64,000 bases of DNA from an uncultured Bacteroides sp. (GCA_964461785.1 CAYWWE010000002.1:3609-67608), one strand, 5' to 3'. Shown: positions 51,031-55,879, numbered from the stretch's first letter. Translations and numbers: made by a program. Notes: generated by a model from the letters alone, not told the origin.

Positions 51031-51999
51031 TCACACTGTGACGACTATTTTGCCTATCTCTCCACGCTGCTCTGCCAGTTCGTGGGCGGCGGCTATATCT
51101 TCAAGCCTGAATGTGCGGGCAATGATGGGATGTATCCGTGCGCGGTCGATCAGATCCATCATGTCGGTGATTTCTTTCTGTGTCGGGGAATTGCTGTAGA
51201 ATCCGGTGAGATATACCCCGGAAGGAATTTCCTTGATCGGATCAAAATCTTTCATGCCGAATATGCCTCCGAGCAGGCCGGTGTGACATACGATTCCGTG
51301 CAACGATGTAAGCCGCAGCGACTCAAGCAGGGTAGCGGCACCGATCAGTTCGAGCACTTTAGTTGCACCATAGGGGTATTTATCGAGAAATTGCTGTCTT
51401 AGATCGGGCCCTTCGATCATGGCGTCGTCTGCTCCATATTGTCTCAGAAGACTGCACTTTTGTGTGCTGCGGGTGGTGGAAACGACTGTGGCTCCGATTG
51501 CCTTGGCAAGCTGCAGGGCTGCCAACCCCACCGTGGAGGTGCCACCACGGATAAGCAGAAGATCGCCTGACTTCAGCTGCAACGATCCTACGAGCGAGCC
51601 GTAGGCCGTGTAAAAGGTCTCCGGAATAGCGGCAAGTTCCTGCCAGTCAAGACTACTGTTGACAACAAACAGATGGCTTGCCGGCAAAAGGGCGTATTCC
51701 GAGTAGCTTCCGTCGAAACTGCGGCCCATTCCACCCATCAGGGCAATCACGCGATCGCCCTTCCTGAATCGGGTGTCGGAGGGATCTTCAACCACACCTA
51801 CACATTCGATGCCGGGTATGATCGGTTTCCGGATATATGGCCGGGCTATCTCAAACTGACGGAGAAGTATCTCGGAATGATTGATGCCGAAGGCTTTGAC
51901 TTTGACAAGCACCCATCCTGGGCGCACCGTAGGGATGGCTCTTTCGGTTAATTTCATTTCTCCGGCCTTGCAAGGCTCGGTGAGTACAACAGCTTTCAT
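51031..51999 (-). CDS. Zn-independent MDR-family (quinone) oxidoreductase
   Basis: VLVKVKAFGINHSE, PGIECVG, DGSYSEY, RGGTSTVG, GKIVV; no catalytic Zn Cys/His set; ATG overlaps the rSAM stop. Confidence 0.88.
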   Translation of the reverse strand: MKAVVLTEPCKAGEMKLTERAIPTVRPGWVLVKVKAFGINHSEILLRQFEIARPYIRKPIIPGIECVGVVEDPSDTRFRKGDRVIALMGGMGRSFDGSYSEYALLPASHLFVVNSSLDWQELAAIPETFYTAYGSLVGSLQLKSGDLLLIRGGTSTVGLAALQLAKAIGATVVSTTRSTQKCSLLRQYGADDAMIEGPDLRQQFLDKYPYGATKVLELIGAATLLESLRLTSLHGIVCHTGLLGGIFGMKDFDPIKEIPSGVYLTGFYSNSPTQKEITDMMDLIDRARIHPIIARTFRLEDIAAAHELAEQRGEIGKIVVTV

Positions 52000-53015
52000 A
52001 CTTCCTTCCAGCATTGGGGGTCAGGTGCATAAAACGAGCGGTGGTAGCCGTATGCCACAGCCGGGCATCCTCGGCAGAAGCGGAGCAATTCGCATCGCGA
52101 GCATTTCTCAAATTTCTCATGCTGACGATAGGCCTCCATTTCTTTTCCGGTCCAGAGATCATGAATTGGAGTGTGGAAAAGATTGCCTACTACGCTATCA
52201 AAGCGGCGGCAGGCCATGACACTGCCGTCGGGCTGAATGGTGAAATGGCAGTCGCCGCAGTGACATCCGTCGTAGATAGCCTCAGGATCGCTGTTGGCCG
52301 GAATCTGAAACAGCCCTTTCTCATAAAGATACAGGGTCCACAGATGATCCTTGAGGTTGAAGACGGTCGACGAATCCTTATGCTGCTCAAACTTTTTCCA
52401 GATGCGGTCGAGGAAGTCGCGGTATTCAAGCGGCGAGATATGAGTAGATTTTTCTTCGGAGGTGGGGCAATAACGTCCGAAGGCAAACAGGTCGACCCCT
52501 TTGTCAACTACCAGGTCAATAATGTCGGGGATCTCGCTGATATTTGTACCGGAGACGGTTGTCATTACCGCAACCCGTATACCGGCTTTTTTCAGGACGT
52601 CAATCTTGTCGATGGTAGTGTCGAACGATCCGGGCTTTCGAATGGAGTCGTGGGTGTCTCTCATTCCGTCGAGCGACAACTGATATTTGGCGCATCCCAT
52701 GTCTTTCAGGCGGATGCACACCTCATGGGTGAGATGAAAAGGATTGCCAAGGATCGTGAATGGAATATCACGCTCCTTAAGGAGTGAGAGAATCTCCCAA
52801 AAGTGTCGGTGAAGGATGGGATCGCCACCTGTTATATAAAAATATGGTAGGCGGTGTATCTTCCGGCACATCTCCTCACATTGAGCGACAACCTCCTTCG
52901 CCCTTTCGAGTGATATCTCGATCAGGTGTGGATGTCCTTCCGAGAAAATGTAGCAGTGTTCGCAGCGCTGATCGCAGCTATCGGTTATGTGCCACTGGAA
53001 AGCAAAATATTCCAT
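51996..53015 (-). CDS. Radical SAM/SPASM peptide maturase (ACGX-system type)
   Basis: QWHITDSCDQRCEHCY (CxxxCxxC), ITGGDP, SLDG; SPASM Cys array GCHCGDC, MAC, CSRCELLRFCRGC, DPQC. Confidence 0.92.
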   Translation of the reverse strand: MEYFAFQWHITDSCDQRCEHCYIFSEGHPHLIEISLERAKEVVAQCEEMCRKIHRLPYFYITGGDPILHRHFWEILSLLKERDIPFTILGNPFHLTHEVCIRLKDMGCAKYQLSLDGMRDTHDSIRKPGSFDTTIDKIDVLKKAGIRVAVMTTVSGTNISEIPDIIDLVVDKGVDLFAFGRYCPTSEEKSTHISPLEYRDFLDRIWKKFEQHKDSSTVFNLKDHLWTLYLYEKGLFQIPANSDPEAIYDGCHCGDCHFTIQPDGSVMACRRFDSVVGNLFHTPIHDLWTGKEMEAYRQHEKFEKCSRCELLRFCRGCPAVAYGYHRSFYAPDPQCWKEV

Positions 53016-53141
53016 ATCATAGATTTATGTTCCGTATTTAATGGTTTCTCGCCATGGGGCGAGCCGTGATAAAACGACAGACTCCGACAGAAAGGCGGGT
53101 TGCTCAGCTGCCGGAGTTGTCGGGGAGGGTACTGGACGGAG

Positions 53142-53315
53142 TTATTTTTCTCCTGCACCGCAAGCCGAGCCACATGCTGCGGGCTTGGGTTCGGGTTTTT
53201 CCTCGCCGGCTCCGCAGGCAGAGCCGCATGCGCCTGAGGGTGTTTCGGTTGCGGCCTGAGCACAGAGATATGCCTGTGCGGTGTGCTTTACGGCACTATT
53301 GGCAATACGCTTCAT
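53142..53315 (-). CDS. ACGX-repeat RiPP precursor peptide, 57 aa (not in ORF track)
   Basis: Hand translation MKRIANSAVKHTAQAYLCAQAATETPSGACGSACGAGEEKPEPKPAACGSACGAGEK*; directly upstream of and co-oriented with the rSAM/SPASM gene. Confidence 0.88.
   Translation of the reverse strand: MKRIANSAVKHTAQAYLCAQAATETPSGACGSACGAGEEKPEPKPAACGSACGAGEK
53148..53231 (-). repeat. Two 30-nt direct repeats encoding ACGSACGAGE (53202-53231 and 53148-53177)
   Basis: gcatgcggctctgcctgcggagccggcgag vs gcatgtggctcggcttgcggtgcaggagaa; 7 differences, all at third codon positions. Confidence 0.95.
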
Positions 53316-53360: not shown

Positions 53361-53368
53361 CAAAATTA
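53361..53368 (-). promoter_or_regulatory. -7 promoter element of peptide-rSAM-oxidoreductase operon
   Basis: TAATTTTG on minus strand, 45 nt upstream of the peptide ATG. Confidence 0.65.
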
Positions 53369-53394: not shown

Positions 53395-53430
53395 CTTACG
53401 AAAGGGTAACCAAGTAATATATTTGTTACT
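53395..53430. promoter_or_regulatory. Candidate HxlR-family operator
   Basis: CTTAC-N6-GTAAC, AGTAA-N8-TTACT and GTAAC-N14-GTTAC inverted half-sites between divergent promoters. Confidence 0.45.
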
Positions 53431-53545: not shown

Positions 53546-53917
53546 ATGAGAAGAAAAGAGCAGCTTAATTCCATCATAGAGATCTGTCCGGTCAGAAATG
53601 TTGTGGCCCGTTTCGGCAATAAATGGGCTTTGCTTGTCATACTGGTCCTGAGCGAGAATGACCCGATCCGGTTCAATGATCTGGGACGTAAGATACCTGA
53701 CATTTCATCGCGGGTGCTATCGTCGACACTGAGGACTCTTGAAGCCGACGGGCTTGTCAGCCGCGAATACTTTCAGGAGGTTCCTCCGAGAGTGGAATAT
53801 TCGCTTACCGACACAGGGCGATCACTGGTGCCGATCATTGTGCAACTCACTGAGTGGGCTCAAAAAAACATGAAGACCATTATCGAGCATCGACGTCTCA
53901 GCACTCCTGAAAGCTGA
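53546..53917 (+). CDS. HxlR/DUF24 winged-helix transcriptional regulator
   Basis: CPV...GNKW, RFNDL, ISSRVLSSTLRTLEADGLV, VPPRVEYSLT. Confidence 0.95.
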   Translation: MRRKEQLNSIIEICPVRNVVARFGNKWALLVILVLSENDPIRFNDLGRKIPDISSRVLSSTLRTLEADGLVSREYFQEVPPRVEYSLTDTGRSLVPIIVQLTEWAQKNMKTIIEHRRLSTPES

Positions 53918-53988: not shown

Positions 53989-55233
53989 ATGGCATCCGAT
54001 TCATCTGTAAAGCCGGCACAGACCACTACCGCCGACTTATCTTCTGCTCCCAAACATTATGGCCTCTTTGTGGTGTTCATTGCCATAATAGGCGCATTCT
54101 CCTCGCTCGTCAACGATATGTACCTCCCGACAATTCCTTCGATGATGAAGGAGTTTCACACTACGCCTTCGATGACCCAGATGGGCATATCGATGGCTAT
54201 GATCGGAATGGGTCTCGGCTCGGTATTATGGGGCTCGGCAAGCGACCACTACGGGCGCAAACCGATTTTGATCGGGTCGCTGATAATATTTGTGATAGCA
54301 ACTGCGCTCTCACTGTTTTCGCGCAATATAACTTTCTTCATAATCTGCCGTCTGTTTCAGGGGCTTGGAGCCGGTGGAGCAATGGTGCTATCCACCTCTA
54401 TCCCGGCCGATGTCTATATGGGGCGTCAACTTGCCAAACTCATGGCTATTGTAGGTGCCATCAACGGTGTGGCACCGGCTCTCGGGCCTGTTGTCGGTGG
54501 TTTCATGGCCGATTGGGTCGGATGGCATGGAATATTTGTTGTTCTCCTCGTGGTAGGGGTTGTAATGACTTTCTGGACCACACATTATACTGAGACGCTC
54601 CCTCCGGCGCGCCGTCTTAAGGCACAGAGTCTCAAGGGCTACGTCAAAGCCTACCGATCGCTGTTTGCCAACGGTCGCTTCATGCTCTATGTCACGATCA
54701 AAGCTGTTGCGATTGGTCTGCTGTATGCCTATATATCGTCTGCGCCCTTTATCATACAGACACACTATGGATTCAGCGCCATGACTTTCGGACTGATTTT
54801 CGGAGGAAACGCACTTGCCATGAGCATAGGTTCATCGCTCGCACTGAAATTTAAGGTGATGAAGCAGGCTATGGTCGTCGGTTGTTTCGGTATGTTTGTG
54901 TTCGCCGTAGCAGAAGCGTTCGTGATGTGGCATGAAACACCGTTTATCTATTATGAACTATGCGCCATACCGATGCTTCTGTTCTCAGGCATGATCTTCT
55001 CAAGTGCCAACACACTTTCGATGGAGGTAGGACGTGATGAGGCCGGTACAGCTTCGGCTATCCTCAGTGTGGTGAAGTATGCTTTCGCTGCCGTTGTGTC
55101 GCCTCTCGTAGGTCTCGGAAATATCTTCCACTCCACGGCAATAGCATACGTTGCCGTGACCTCGGTAGCGGTAGTGCTCGCATGGCGCGCCATACGCCTC
55201 GCTCCTTTAGCCGATATGGAGAGAACTAAATAA
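53989..55233 (+). CDS. Bcr/CflA family MFS efflux transporter
   Basis: DMYLPTIP, SDHYGRKP, RLFQGLGAG, PALGPVVGG; about 12 TM. Confidence 0.92.
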   Translation: MASDSSVKPAQTTTADLSSAPKHYGLFVVFIAIIGAFSSLVNDMYLPTIPSMMKEFHTTPSMTQMGISMAMIGMGLGSVLWGSASDHYGRKPILIGSLIIFVIATALSLFSRNITFFIICRLFQGLGAGGAMVLSTSIPADVYMGRQLAKLMAIVGAINGVAPALGPVVGGFMADWVGWHGIFVVLLVVGVVMTFWTTHYTETLPPARRLKAQSLKGYVKAYRSLFANGRFMLYVTIKAVAIGLLYAYISSAPFIIQTHYGFSAMTFGLIFGGNALAMSIGSSLALKFKVMKQAMVVGCFGMFVFAVAEAFVMWHETPFIYYELCAIPMLLFSGMIFSSANTLSMEVGRDEAGTASAILSVVKYAFAAVVSPLVGLGNIFHSTAIAYVAVTSVAVVLAWRAIRLAPLADMERTK

Positions 55234-55318: not shown

Positions 55319-55879
55319 ATGGAAAAGACAGAAAAGGATAAGATGCTCGCCGGCGAGATCTATGATGCGGGTTATGACCCTCAACTTATAGAGGAACGCC
55401 TGAGGTGTAAGGAATTGTGTCGCGACTACAACGATCTGCGCCCAAGGGATACACCAGCCCGTGAGAATCTTCTCTCGCGGATTCTCGGAAGCATAGGTGG
55501 CGCGATACTGATTGAGCAGCCATTCTACTGCGATTACGGCTATAATGTCTCCGTCGGTCAAAACTTCTACGCAAATTATAATCTGGTGATCCTCGATGAG
55601 GCTCCTGTCACATTCGGCGACAATGTCTTTATCGCTCCAAACTGTGGCTTCTACACAGCCGGACATCCTCTTGACCCGTCCGAGCGCAACAAAGGTCTCG
55701 AATATGCACGCCCCATTTCTGTGGGCAACAATGTTTGGATCGGTGCAAACGTGTGTGTACTGCCGGGAGTAACGATAGGGGATAACTGTGTCATCGGTGC
55801 CGGAAGCGTGGTGGTGAGGGATATTCCTGCAAATTCGGTAGCGGTGGGTAACCCGTGCAGGGTGGTGAAATCTATTTGA
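55319..55879 (+). CDS. Maltose/galactoside O-acetyltransferase family
   Basis: KMLAGEIY, PFYCDYGYN, hexapeptide repeats, AVGNPC; TAATTTTG at 55283-55290. Confidence 0.93.
   Translation: MEKTEKDKMLAGEIYDAGYDPQLIEERLRCKELCRDYNDLRPRDTPARENLLSRILGSIGGAILIEQPFYCDYGYNVSVGQNFYANYNLVILDEAPVTFGDNVFIAPNCGFYTAGHPLDPSERNKGLEYARPISVGNNVWIGANVCVLPGVTIGDNCVIGAGSVVVRDIPANSVAVGNPCRVVKSI

Follow-up and report, generated by a model that had tools for sequence, protein, structure and literature searches.

Two characterized radical S-adenosylmethionine (SAM) enzymes with a SPASM domain come closest to the locus described here. PapB, the enzyme of the PapB/PapA (freyrasin) system, joins the sulfur of cysteine to Cβ of aspartate or Cγ of glutamate in CX3D motifs (PMC9413430), and SbtM converts cysteine or selenocysteine flanked by small residues (GGUG motif) to a thio(seleno)oxazole, with a loss of 4 Da and retention of the thiol (PMC9204691). 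A third system, named ACGX, pairs a peptide of Ala-Cys-Gly-X repeats with a co-oriented radical SAM/SPASM enzyme and is so far defined bioinformatically only. On the side of regulation, HypR/YodB/QsrR-type proteins sense oxidants and electrophiles through thiols and, in Bacillus, Staphylococcus, and Corynebacterium, govern genes for quinone, nitro, or azo reductases. We analyzed a 64,000-nt stretch of DNA from an uncultured Bacteroides sp. (GCA_964461785.1, CAYWWE010000002.1:3609-67608; the window), in which a small gene at positions 53142..53315 on the minus strand encodes a 57-amino acid peptide with two cysteine-containing cores. Judged by curated family models, this gene is a member of the catalogued ACGX family and not an unrecognized kind of gene. 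The best explanation overall, which we consider likely, is that it encodes an ACGX precursor modified by the neighboring radical SAM enzyme, that it forms part of an operon with an HxlR-type regulator and a reductase, and that its product is intracellular.

The minus-strand open reading frame (ORF) at 53142..53315 translates to MKRIANSAVKHTAQAYLCAQAATETPSGACGSACGAGEEKPEPKPAACGSACGAGEK. Residues 1-28 (53232-53315) form a leader that contains a conserved HTAQAYLC motif. The leader is followed by core 1, ACGSACGAGE (residues 29-38; 53202-53231), by the linker EKPEPKPA (53178-53201), by core 2, again ACGSACGAGE (residues 47-56; 53148-53177), and finally by Lys-57 and the stop codon (53142-53147). 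The two identical 10-residue cores comprise four ACGX units (ACGS, ACGA, ACGS, and ACGA). At the DNA level, the cores differ in 7 of 30 nucleotides, and every difference is synonymous and falls on a third codon position; the chance that seven random differences among 30 sites would all do so is 5.9e-5. Both the ORF with its identical cores and the synonymous nature of the differences had been reported in a preliminary description of the window, with which our translation agrees exactly.

The same description had cautioned that an ORF on the opposite strand (53041..53259, plus strand) runs in the same wobble register as the peptide gene. This antisense ORF is indeed present. In homologous genes, however, its frame is broken by a stop codon in 36 of the 38 gap-free sequences, whereas the sense frame is open; we therefore assign the minus strand as the coding strand and reject an antisense gene. 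An alignment of 39 genes shows 26, 22, and 57 variable columns at sense codon positions 1, 2, and 3, respectively. The small gene is thus confirmed as real and as encoding a cysteine-repeat precursor-type peptide.

The peptide scores 29.8 bits against the NCBIfam model TIGR04341 (ACGX-repeat peptide; cut-off 28, E 6.8e-7). A six-frame search of the genome with the same model returned it at 27.9 bits, or at 28.9 bits with its neighbors in frame. The margin is small, the model being short, and the assignment is backed by homologues that carry PF27855. A search of a collection of 5.8 billion proteins retrieved 693 relatives of the peptide at the level of clusters, and the Pfam family PF27855 (Target_ACGX) is found on all but one of the 120 relatives listed. 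Among the matches listed, the nearest cluster representatives share 84-95% identity with the peptide, and relatives at 64-86% identity already bear the NCBI/JGI name "ACGX-repeat peptide"; peptides so named occur in Muribaculaceae, Paramuribaculum, Paraprevotella, and Phocaeicola. A second leader type used as query yielded 1954 cluster-level homologues, and the named relatives from both queries together span Muribaculaceae, Phocaeicola, Lachnotalea, Ruminococcus, Sporomusa, and Desulfovibrio.

The peptide is followed on the same strand by a gene for a 339-residue radical SAM/SPASM enzyme (51996..53015, minus strand), the start of which lies 126 nt downstream of the peptide stop. This enzyme matches TIGR04340 (radical SAM/SPASM, ACGX system) over its full length (1-341) with 573.8 bits at a cut-off of 400. 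The locus therefore shows all that characterizes the ACGX system, namely a peptide and an enzyme that each pass the curated model and tandem Ala-Cys-Gly-X units directly upstream of a co-oriented enzyme. Because both models are passed and relatives of the peptide have already been named, the object is one that is catalogued as TIGR04341/TIGR04340/PF27855, and the novelty implied in the preliminary description does not hold. Nothing material separates the locus from other ACGX systems: it is a two-core, Muribaculaceae-type member with an HTAQAYLC leader. Its one peculiarity is a glutamate at the fourth position after the second cysteine of both cores (position +4), whereas most ACGX relatives carry aspartate there in the first core.

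Within the enzyme, Pfam recognizes the Radical_SAM and SPASM domains. The CxxxCxxC motif occupies residues 14-21, nine cysteines are located in the C-terminal SPASM region, and an N-terminal RRE domain (RiPP recognition element; RiPPs are ribosomally made peptides with post-translational modifications) is absent. We used bit scores against curated family models as the measure of how close the enzyme is to SbtM and to PapB. After TIGR04340, SbtM (TIGR04082) scores highest among the other families with 189.2 bits, which is below its cut-off of 350; the match covers profile positions 198-504 of 516, and the ∼200-residue N-terminal region of SbtM is absent. AhbD (141 bits) and NirJ-type enzymes come next, whereas the SkfB family reaches 60 bits. 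The PapB family (NF047865) reaches 58.3 bits at a cut-off of 340, although its profile aligns over the full length of the enzyme (7-322 to 6-321 of 330).

A sequence search of solved structures revealed no close relative of the enzyme; the best matches were SkfB (68 bits), SuiB (57 bits), and CteB (42 bits). The AlphaFold model (predicted local distance difference test score of 82.9) displays a generic SPASM fold devoid of an RRE, and a fold search with this model matched SkfB, SuiB, anSMEcpe, TigE, BlsE, and PqqE. The best whole-length superposition was obtained with anSMEcpe (template-modeling scores of 0.77/0.73). As modeled, the fold does not discriminate among the candidate chemistries discussed below.

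The TIGR04340 cut-off is exceeded by only one gene in the genome. The same genome contains a second gene for a SPASM-type radical SAM protein (G000:C36:16731-17678, locus L002), which scores 104 bits against TIGR04340, well under the cut-off.

Peptide and enzyme occur together with hardly an exception. We compared 80 loci from GTDB representative genomes (titled Muribaculaceae, Sangeribacter, and other Bacteroidales metagenome-assembled genomes), in which the enzymes are 75-86% identical. The peptide lies at most 600 nt upstream of the enzyme in 76 of them and ∼650 nt upstream in one further locus (L093), whereas in the remaining three the available upstream DNA is too short. All 77 informative loci hence encode the peptide. 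Homologous enzymes devoid of such a peptide, which the preliminary description had named as the finding that would overturn its proposal, were not encountered, and the pairing supports its view of a precursor-type peptide that shares its orientation with the adjacent radical SAM/SPASM enzyme and is dedicated to it. The sequence-based expectation is that the ORF is the substrate peptide and would be modified by the enzyme encoded immediately downstream.

The distribution of the ACGX system is patchy. Among 201 genomes sampled across the family, the TIGR04340 enzyme is present in 14, and in 13 of these 14 Muribaculaceae genomes the peptide adjoins it; the enzyme is missing from all nine further genomes of the same genus. 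When 401 genomes were sampled across the phylum, the source genome alone exceeded the TIGR04340 cut-off. The enzymes of the Sporomusa, Clostridia, and Desulfovibrio loci are nevertheless 57-65% identical to that of the window. Because such identity across phyla is combined with a patchy distribution, the data suggest horizontal spread under strong constraint.

Two loci deserve separate mention. One Muribaculaceae genome (G454:C73, locus L007) encodes a four-unit peptide (ACGSACGAGEKP... four times) just upstream of an enzyme gene at 1501-2517. This peptide has a short MLKNLF-type leader, like the MALxNL leaders of Firmicutes, and the enzyme is only 59% identical to that of the window; the locus suggests a second ACGX lineage in Muribaculaceae, which was probably acquired horizontally. 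The other locus, from another Bacteroidota family (L107:4641-7210, G294:C30), contains a distant cousin of the radical SAM/SPASM enzyme (38% identity; 320 bits against TIGR04340, short of the cut-off), followed by an 83-amino acid peptide that contains GCGGCNGCHGC and GCAGCGGCG clusters, and by a glycosyltransferase. No HxlR or reductase gene is found near it, and it seems to be a Cys-Gly peptide system of another kind. We accordingly set aside the cousin enzyme of L006/L107 as a guide to the ACGX system, given its different Cys-Gly peptide, the glycosyltransferase, and the lack of HxlR and reductase genes.

Clustering of all ORFs from the 80 loci defined a conserved cassette of four genes, which encode a divergently oriented regulator of the HxlR family, the peptide, the radical SAM/SPASM enzyme, and an NAD(P)H reductase whose gene overlaps that of the enzyme. 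In the window, the last of these is a zeta-crystallin/PIG3-like NAD(P)H quinone oxidoreductase (QOR) of the MDR family (51031..52014, minus strand), which was assigned by Pfam and structure search. Its overlap with the enzyme gene amounts to 19 nt if translation starts from the ATG at 52014, and to 4 nt (ATGA) if it starts from the ATG at 51999. The protein contains the Pfam domains ADH_N, ADH_zinc_N, and ADH_zinc_N_2, scores 183 bits against TIGR02824 (under the cut-off), and has the quinone oxidoreductases 4dup and 1yb5 as its closest solved structures. In 66 of the 80 loci, a QOR-like MDR gene follows the enzyme at an identical offset (+1001) and overlaps its stop codon, whereas a nitroreductase takes this place in 12 loci (for example, L030:5012-5587).

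The regulator (53546..53917, plus strand) is a divergently encoded, 123-residue member of the HxlR/DUF24 family (PF01638, E 2.7e-29). It combines a winged-helix HxlR domain with an N-terminal cysteine, Cys-14, which is part of the CP motif IEICPV. Its closest solved structures are YybR (HypR), HxlR, YodB, and QsrR, and a divergent HxlR gene occurs in 69-70 of the 80 loci. In ∼15 loci, a gene for a cupin (∼126 amino acids) is inserted between peptide and enzyme, with a gap of ∼450-520 nt; loci with this gap are L030, L031, L037, L039, L053, L064, L068, L069, L077, L083, and L088. In the Desulfovibrio locus L105, HxlR is likewise preceded by a Cupin_2 gene, and the cassette may include the cupin as a fifth, optional component.

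Far outside Bacteroidota, the cassette follows the same logic; the reductase varies in family but not in position. Sporomusa silvacetica (CP155573.1) encodes HxlR, peptide, radical SAM/SPASM enzyme, and MDR reductase; a Lachnotalea-type contig encodes HxlR, peptide, radical SAM/SPASM enzyme, and a PNPOx-ferredoxin protein; and a Desulfovibrio contig encodes cupin, HxlR, peptide, radical SAM/SPASM enzyme, and nitroreductase. On a Ruminococcus contig, the peptide is followed by a SPASM protein, a nitroreductase, and a PNPOx-ferredoxin protein, and on a metagenome contig by the radical SAM/SPASM enzyme, an MDR reductase, and a nitroreductase. Enzymes that are not orthologous (QOR, nitroreductase, or a clostridial PNPOx-ferredoxin fusion) thus seem to occupy the reductase slot. 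In Sporomusa silvacetica (L103:9621-12185), genes for SIR2-like, DUF1848, and Macro proteins follow the MDR reductase on the same strand. This set includes a possible writer/eraser pair for ADP-ribosylation, and all three genes are absent from the Muribaculaceae cassette.

In the 85 loci that we inspected across phyla, neither an exporter nor a protease is conserved next to the system. Downstream of HxlR, the window contains genes on the plus strand for a Bcr/CflA-type MFS efflux transporter (53989-55233) and an acetyltransferase-like protein (55319-55879). We considered the transporter, the acetyltransferase, and an S41 peptidase on the HxlR side, as well as the genes beyond the reductase, as possible parts of the cassette and rejected them, as they are absent from the 80 related loci.

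The intergenic regions provide candidates for how the cassette might be controlled. A Bacteroidota-type −7 promoter box, TAATTTTG (consensus TAnnTTTG; 53361..53368, minus strand), is positioned 45 nt upstream of the ATG of the peptide gene. In 53 of 54 loci such a box precedes the ATG of the peptide gene, usually by 35-43 nt. It presumably acts as the promoter of the peptide gene, which would then be transcribed from a promoter of its own. Further upstream, 97 nt from the ATG, lies the palindrome AGTAAC-N6-TTACT (in the window AGTAACAAATATATTACT; 53413..53430). In 55 aligned loci, no other block of the divergent intergenic region is conserved as well. The palindrome is a candidate operator for HxlR. 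The divergent, single-cysteine HxlR/DUF24 regulator probably controls the peptide promoter. The arrangement resembles the HypR/YodB/QsrR/QorR DUF24 regulons in that a single-cysteine HxlR protein is encoded divergently from an operon ending in a quinone reductase or nitroreductase; it differs from them in that the peptide and radical SAM genes stand between regulator and reductase.

A stable 48-nt hairpin followed by UUUUA (53075..53122, minus strand) separates the peptide stop from the start of the enzyme gene. The 136-nt spacer between peptide and enzyme folds at −40.3 kcal/mol (z = −3.27 relative to shuffled sequences). In 57 homologous loci, the spacer has a predicted median folding energy of −0.31 kcal/mol per nt, a value that carries no shuffle control. 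The hairpin is a candidate partial terminator that could set the ratio of peptide over enzyme; it probably limits read-through into the enzyme gene and the overlapping reductase-like gene.

As for the chemistry that the enzyme may perform, we first turned to the substrate. We pooled 438 distinct peptides of the family, which contain 2157 cysteines in their repeat regions. The cysteine is preceded by alanine in 92% and followed by glycine in 98.5% of cases. At position +4 from the last cysteine of a unit, 75% of the residues are aspartate and 18% are glutamate (93% acidic); in 140 representatives clustered at 50% identity, the values are 79% for aspartate and 7% for glutamate. Conversely, the linkers, which are rich in proline, lysine, and glutamate, contain 1.9% aspartate and 19.9% glutamate. 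Because aspartate is enriched at +4 and yet makes up only 1.9% of the linkers, the carboxylate at +4 is selected in its own right. Moreover, 154 half units with a single cysteine have the form ACG-x-x-D and thus retain exactly the C-X3-D cysteine. A non-acidic residue (Gly, Lys, Asn, or other) or nothing at all is found at +4 in ∼7% of all units and in ∼14% of those in the 50%-identity representatives, and in a minority of members all units carry lysine or glycine there. The first cysteine of each core (Cys-30 and Cys-48 in the window) has no acidic partner; it occurs in the same, strictly conserved Ala-Cys-Gly context and is followed by serine or threonine (97%) and alanine (92%).

The preliminary description had interpreted the peptide in the light of the ranthipeptide enzyme PapB, with candidate thioethers from Cys-34 to Glu-38 and from Cys-52 to Glu-56 (minus 2 Da each), possible further rings at Cys-30 and Cys-48, and a Pro/Lys linker that may separate two released cores. 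In its full form, this model has a PapB-like enzyme make a ranthipeptide, the linker of which is cleaved to yield the cores as a secreted, bioactive product. Its premise that PapB connects cysteine to aspartate in CX3D motifs and tolerates glutamate is correct (PMC9413430). The PapB-type spacing is present in the peptide as C34-X3-E38 and C52-X3-E56, is conserved in 93% of units across the family, and encloses only small residues (Gly-Ala-Gly) in the putative ring. The high frequency of aspartate at +4 and the half units built around C-X3-D likewise favor this interpretation, as do the compact size of the enzyme and the full-length alignment of the PapB profile. For the acceptor, the acidic residue at the proposed spacing was borne out, whereas glutamate is not its usual state: aspartate is the rule and glutamate the minority.

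The enzyme, on the other hand, does not fit the assignment. Its score against the PapB family (58 bits, cut-off 340) places it outside that family and far under the scores for SbtM (189 bits) and AhbD (141 bits), and the closest characterized family, SbtM, makes thiooxazoles and not thioethers. One cysteine per core lacks an acceptor, although Cys-30 and Cys-48 are as conserved as Cys-34 and Cys-52, and some members offer only lysine or glycine at +4 in all units. Release and secretion of two cores separated by the linker is unsupported, as neither a protease nor an exporter is conserved in the 85 loci. The likeness to PapB/PapA consequently extends to a compact radical SAM/SPASM enzyme and a peptide with repeated Cys-X3-Asp/Glu motifs; the differences are the low score, the second cysteine per core, a cross-link that is so far only predicted, and a context of HxlR and reductase instead of a typical set of RiPP export genes. 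Taken as a whole, the model is rather doubtful. Its chemical part alone, that is thioethers from Cys(i) to Asp/Glu(i+4), here Cys-34 to Glu-38 and Cys-52 to Glu-56 with Cys-30 and Cys-48 left unexplained, fares somewhat better and is a fair contender, although we stop short of calling it probable.

Alternatively, the enzyme might act in the manner of SbtM or of anaerobic sulfatase-maturating enzymes (anSMEs) and abstract a Cβ hydrogen from each Ala-Cys-Gly cysteine. The cysteine would thereby be oxidized, for instance to a 5-thiooxazole formed with the preceding carbonyl, at a cost of 4 Da per cysteine and up to 16 Da for the four core cysteines. SbtM is the nearest characterized family by profile score, over the whole catalytic domain, and its target cysteine or selenocysteine is flanked by small residues and keeps its thiol in the product (PMC9204691). 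All four cysteines of the peptide lie in one such context, between alanine and glycine. In addition, the enzyme model superposes best with anSMEcpe, an RRE-less SPASM enzyme that oxidizes cysteine, and a gene context of redox stress would suit a product with reactive thiols. Such a peptide, rich in aromatic thiols, could bind metal or scavenge electrophiles.

The conservation of aspartate at +4, however, is left unexplained by this chemistry. The enzyme fails the SbtM cut-off and is missing the N-terminal region, the peptide belongs to another family with Asp/Glu at +4, and its gene contains no in-frame TGA and hence no selenocysteine codon. Furthermore, sequence similarity among SPASM proteins is a weak predictor of chemistry. 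We therefore regard the complete SbtM/anSME-like scenario as unlikely, and oxidation of each Ala-Cys-Gly cysteine as such, for example to a thiooxazole with its thiol kept, as only slightly less so; an equal share of our expectation goes to other or mixed chemistry. At the level of sequence, the substrate (CX3D/E) and the enzyme (SbtM nearest) seem to point in different directions.

It is very improbable that the peptide remains unmodified and serves as a cysteine-rich metal-binding or sacrificial-thiol peptide while the radical SAM enzyme acts on another substrate. The abundance of cysteine, the CX3C spacing, and the apparent stress regulation of the operon would agree with such a role. Against it stand the almost one-to-one pairing of peptide and enzyme across several phyla, the placement of the peptide gene, in most loci, immediately upstream of the enzyme gene and on its strand (a minority have a gap of 450-650 nt, ∼15 of them with the cupin gene), and the existence of curated paired models for exactly this peptide and this enzyme. 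The notion that there is no such gene, the repeat being non-coding and the real feature being either the ORF at 53041..53259 on the plus strand or none, can practically be dismissed: the shared wobble register means that the synonymous pattern by itself leaves the strand unfixed, but the antisense frame is interrupted and the sense frame is not, the sense product exceeds the cut-off of a curated hidden Markov model, and a minus-strand promoter box is found at a conserved distance upstream.

We return to the explanation favored at the outset, a modified ACGX precursor in an HxlR/reductase operon with an intracellular product. Of this, the data establish the family membership, the coding strand, the co-occurrence, the make-up of the cassette, and the conserved motifs, whereas regulation, attenuation, the intracellular role, and the chemistry are deduced. 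The HxlR regulator and the NAD(P)H/flavin reductases, which the preliminary description had not considered, point to an intracellular redox role. Since no exporter or protease accompanies the system in any phylum inspected, and a regulator of the oxidant-sensing type and a reductase are almost always present, such a role is favored. From the gene context, the matured peptide most likely acts inside the cell in thiol, redox, or electrophile stress and is unlikely to be a secreted antibiotic.

Several points weigh against this explanation. The lack of a linked exporter or protease leaves room for unlinked ones, and the reductase could have belonged to an HxlR stress regulon before the peptide and its enzyme were inserted there, in which case it would not be a tailoring enzyme. 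Both of its possible chemistries are weakened as well: the thioether by the equally conserved Cys-30 and Cys-48 without acidic partner and by the non-acidic units (∼7%, or ∼14% in representatives), the thiooxazole by the unexplained selection for aspartate at +4, the failed SbtM cut-off, and the absent N-terminal region. Finally, a literature search on the ACGX system found no paper on the chemistry or biology of any member.

The locus alone adds little, given that curated models label both of its genes and near-identical peptides have already been named publicly. The interest lies in the family, which is widespread in gut and other anaerobes (∼1954 clusters from one leader type) and has a strikingly conserved maturation enzyme. 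The two candidate chemistries make mutually exclusive predictions: a thioether would remove 2 Da per cross-link and abolish thiol reactivity, whereas a thiooxazole would remove 4 Da per cysteine, keep thiol reactivity, and absorb near 304 nm. More speculatively, and with a low probability in our estimate, the ACGX peptide could be a ribosomally made, intracellular sulfur-based redox agent or electrophile scavenger of strict anaerobes, constrained by thioethers or equipped with aromatic thiols, induced through the HxlR sensor, and served by a dedicated NAD(P)H/flavin reductase. If so, it would correspond, as a peptide, to low-molecular-weight thiols or to a redox cofactor derived from a peptide, and would arise by an undescribed radical SAM chemistry on Ala-Cys-Gly. 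The physiological lead, a peptide that is probably controlled by HxlR, coupled to a reductase, and apparently not exported, departs from the common view of RiPPs as antibiotics.

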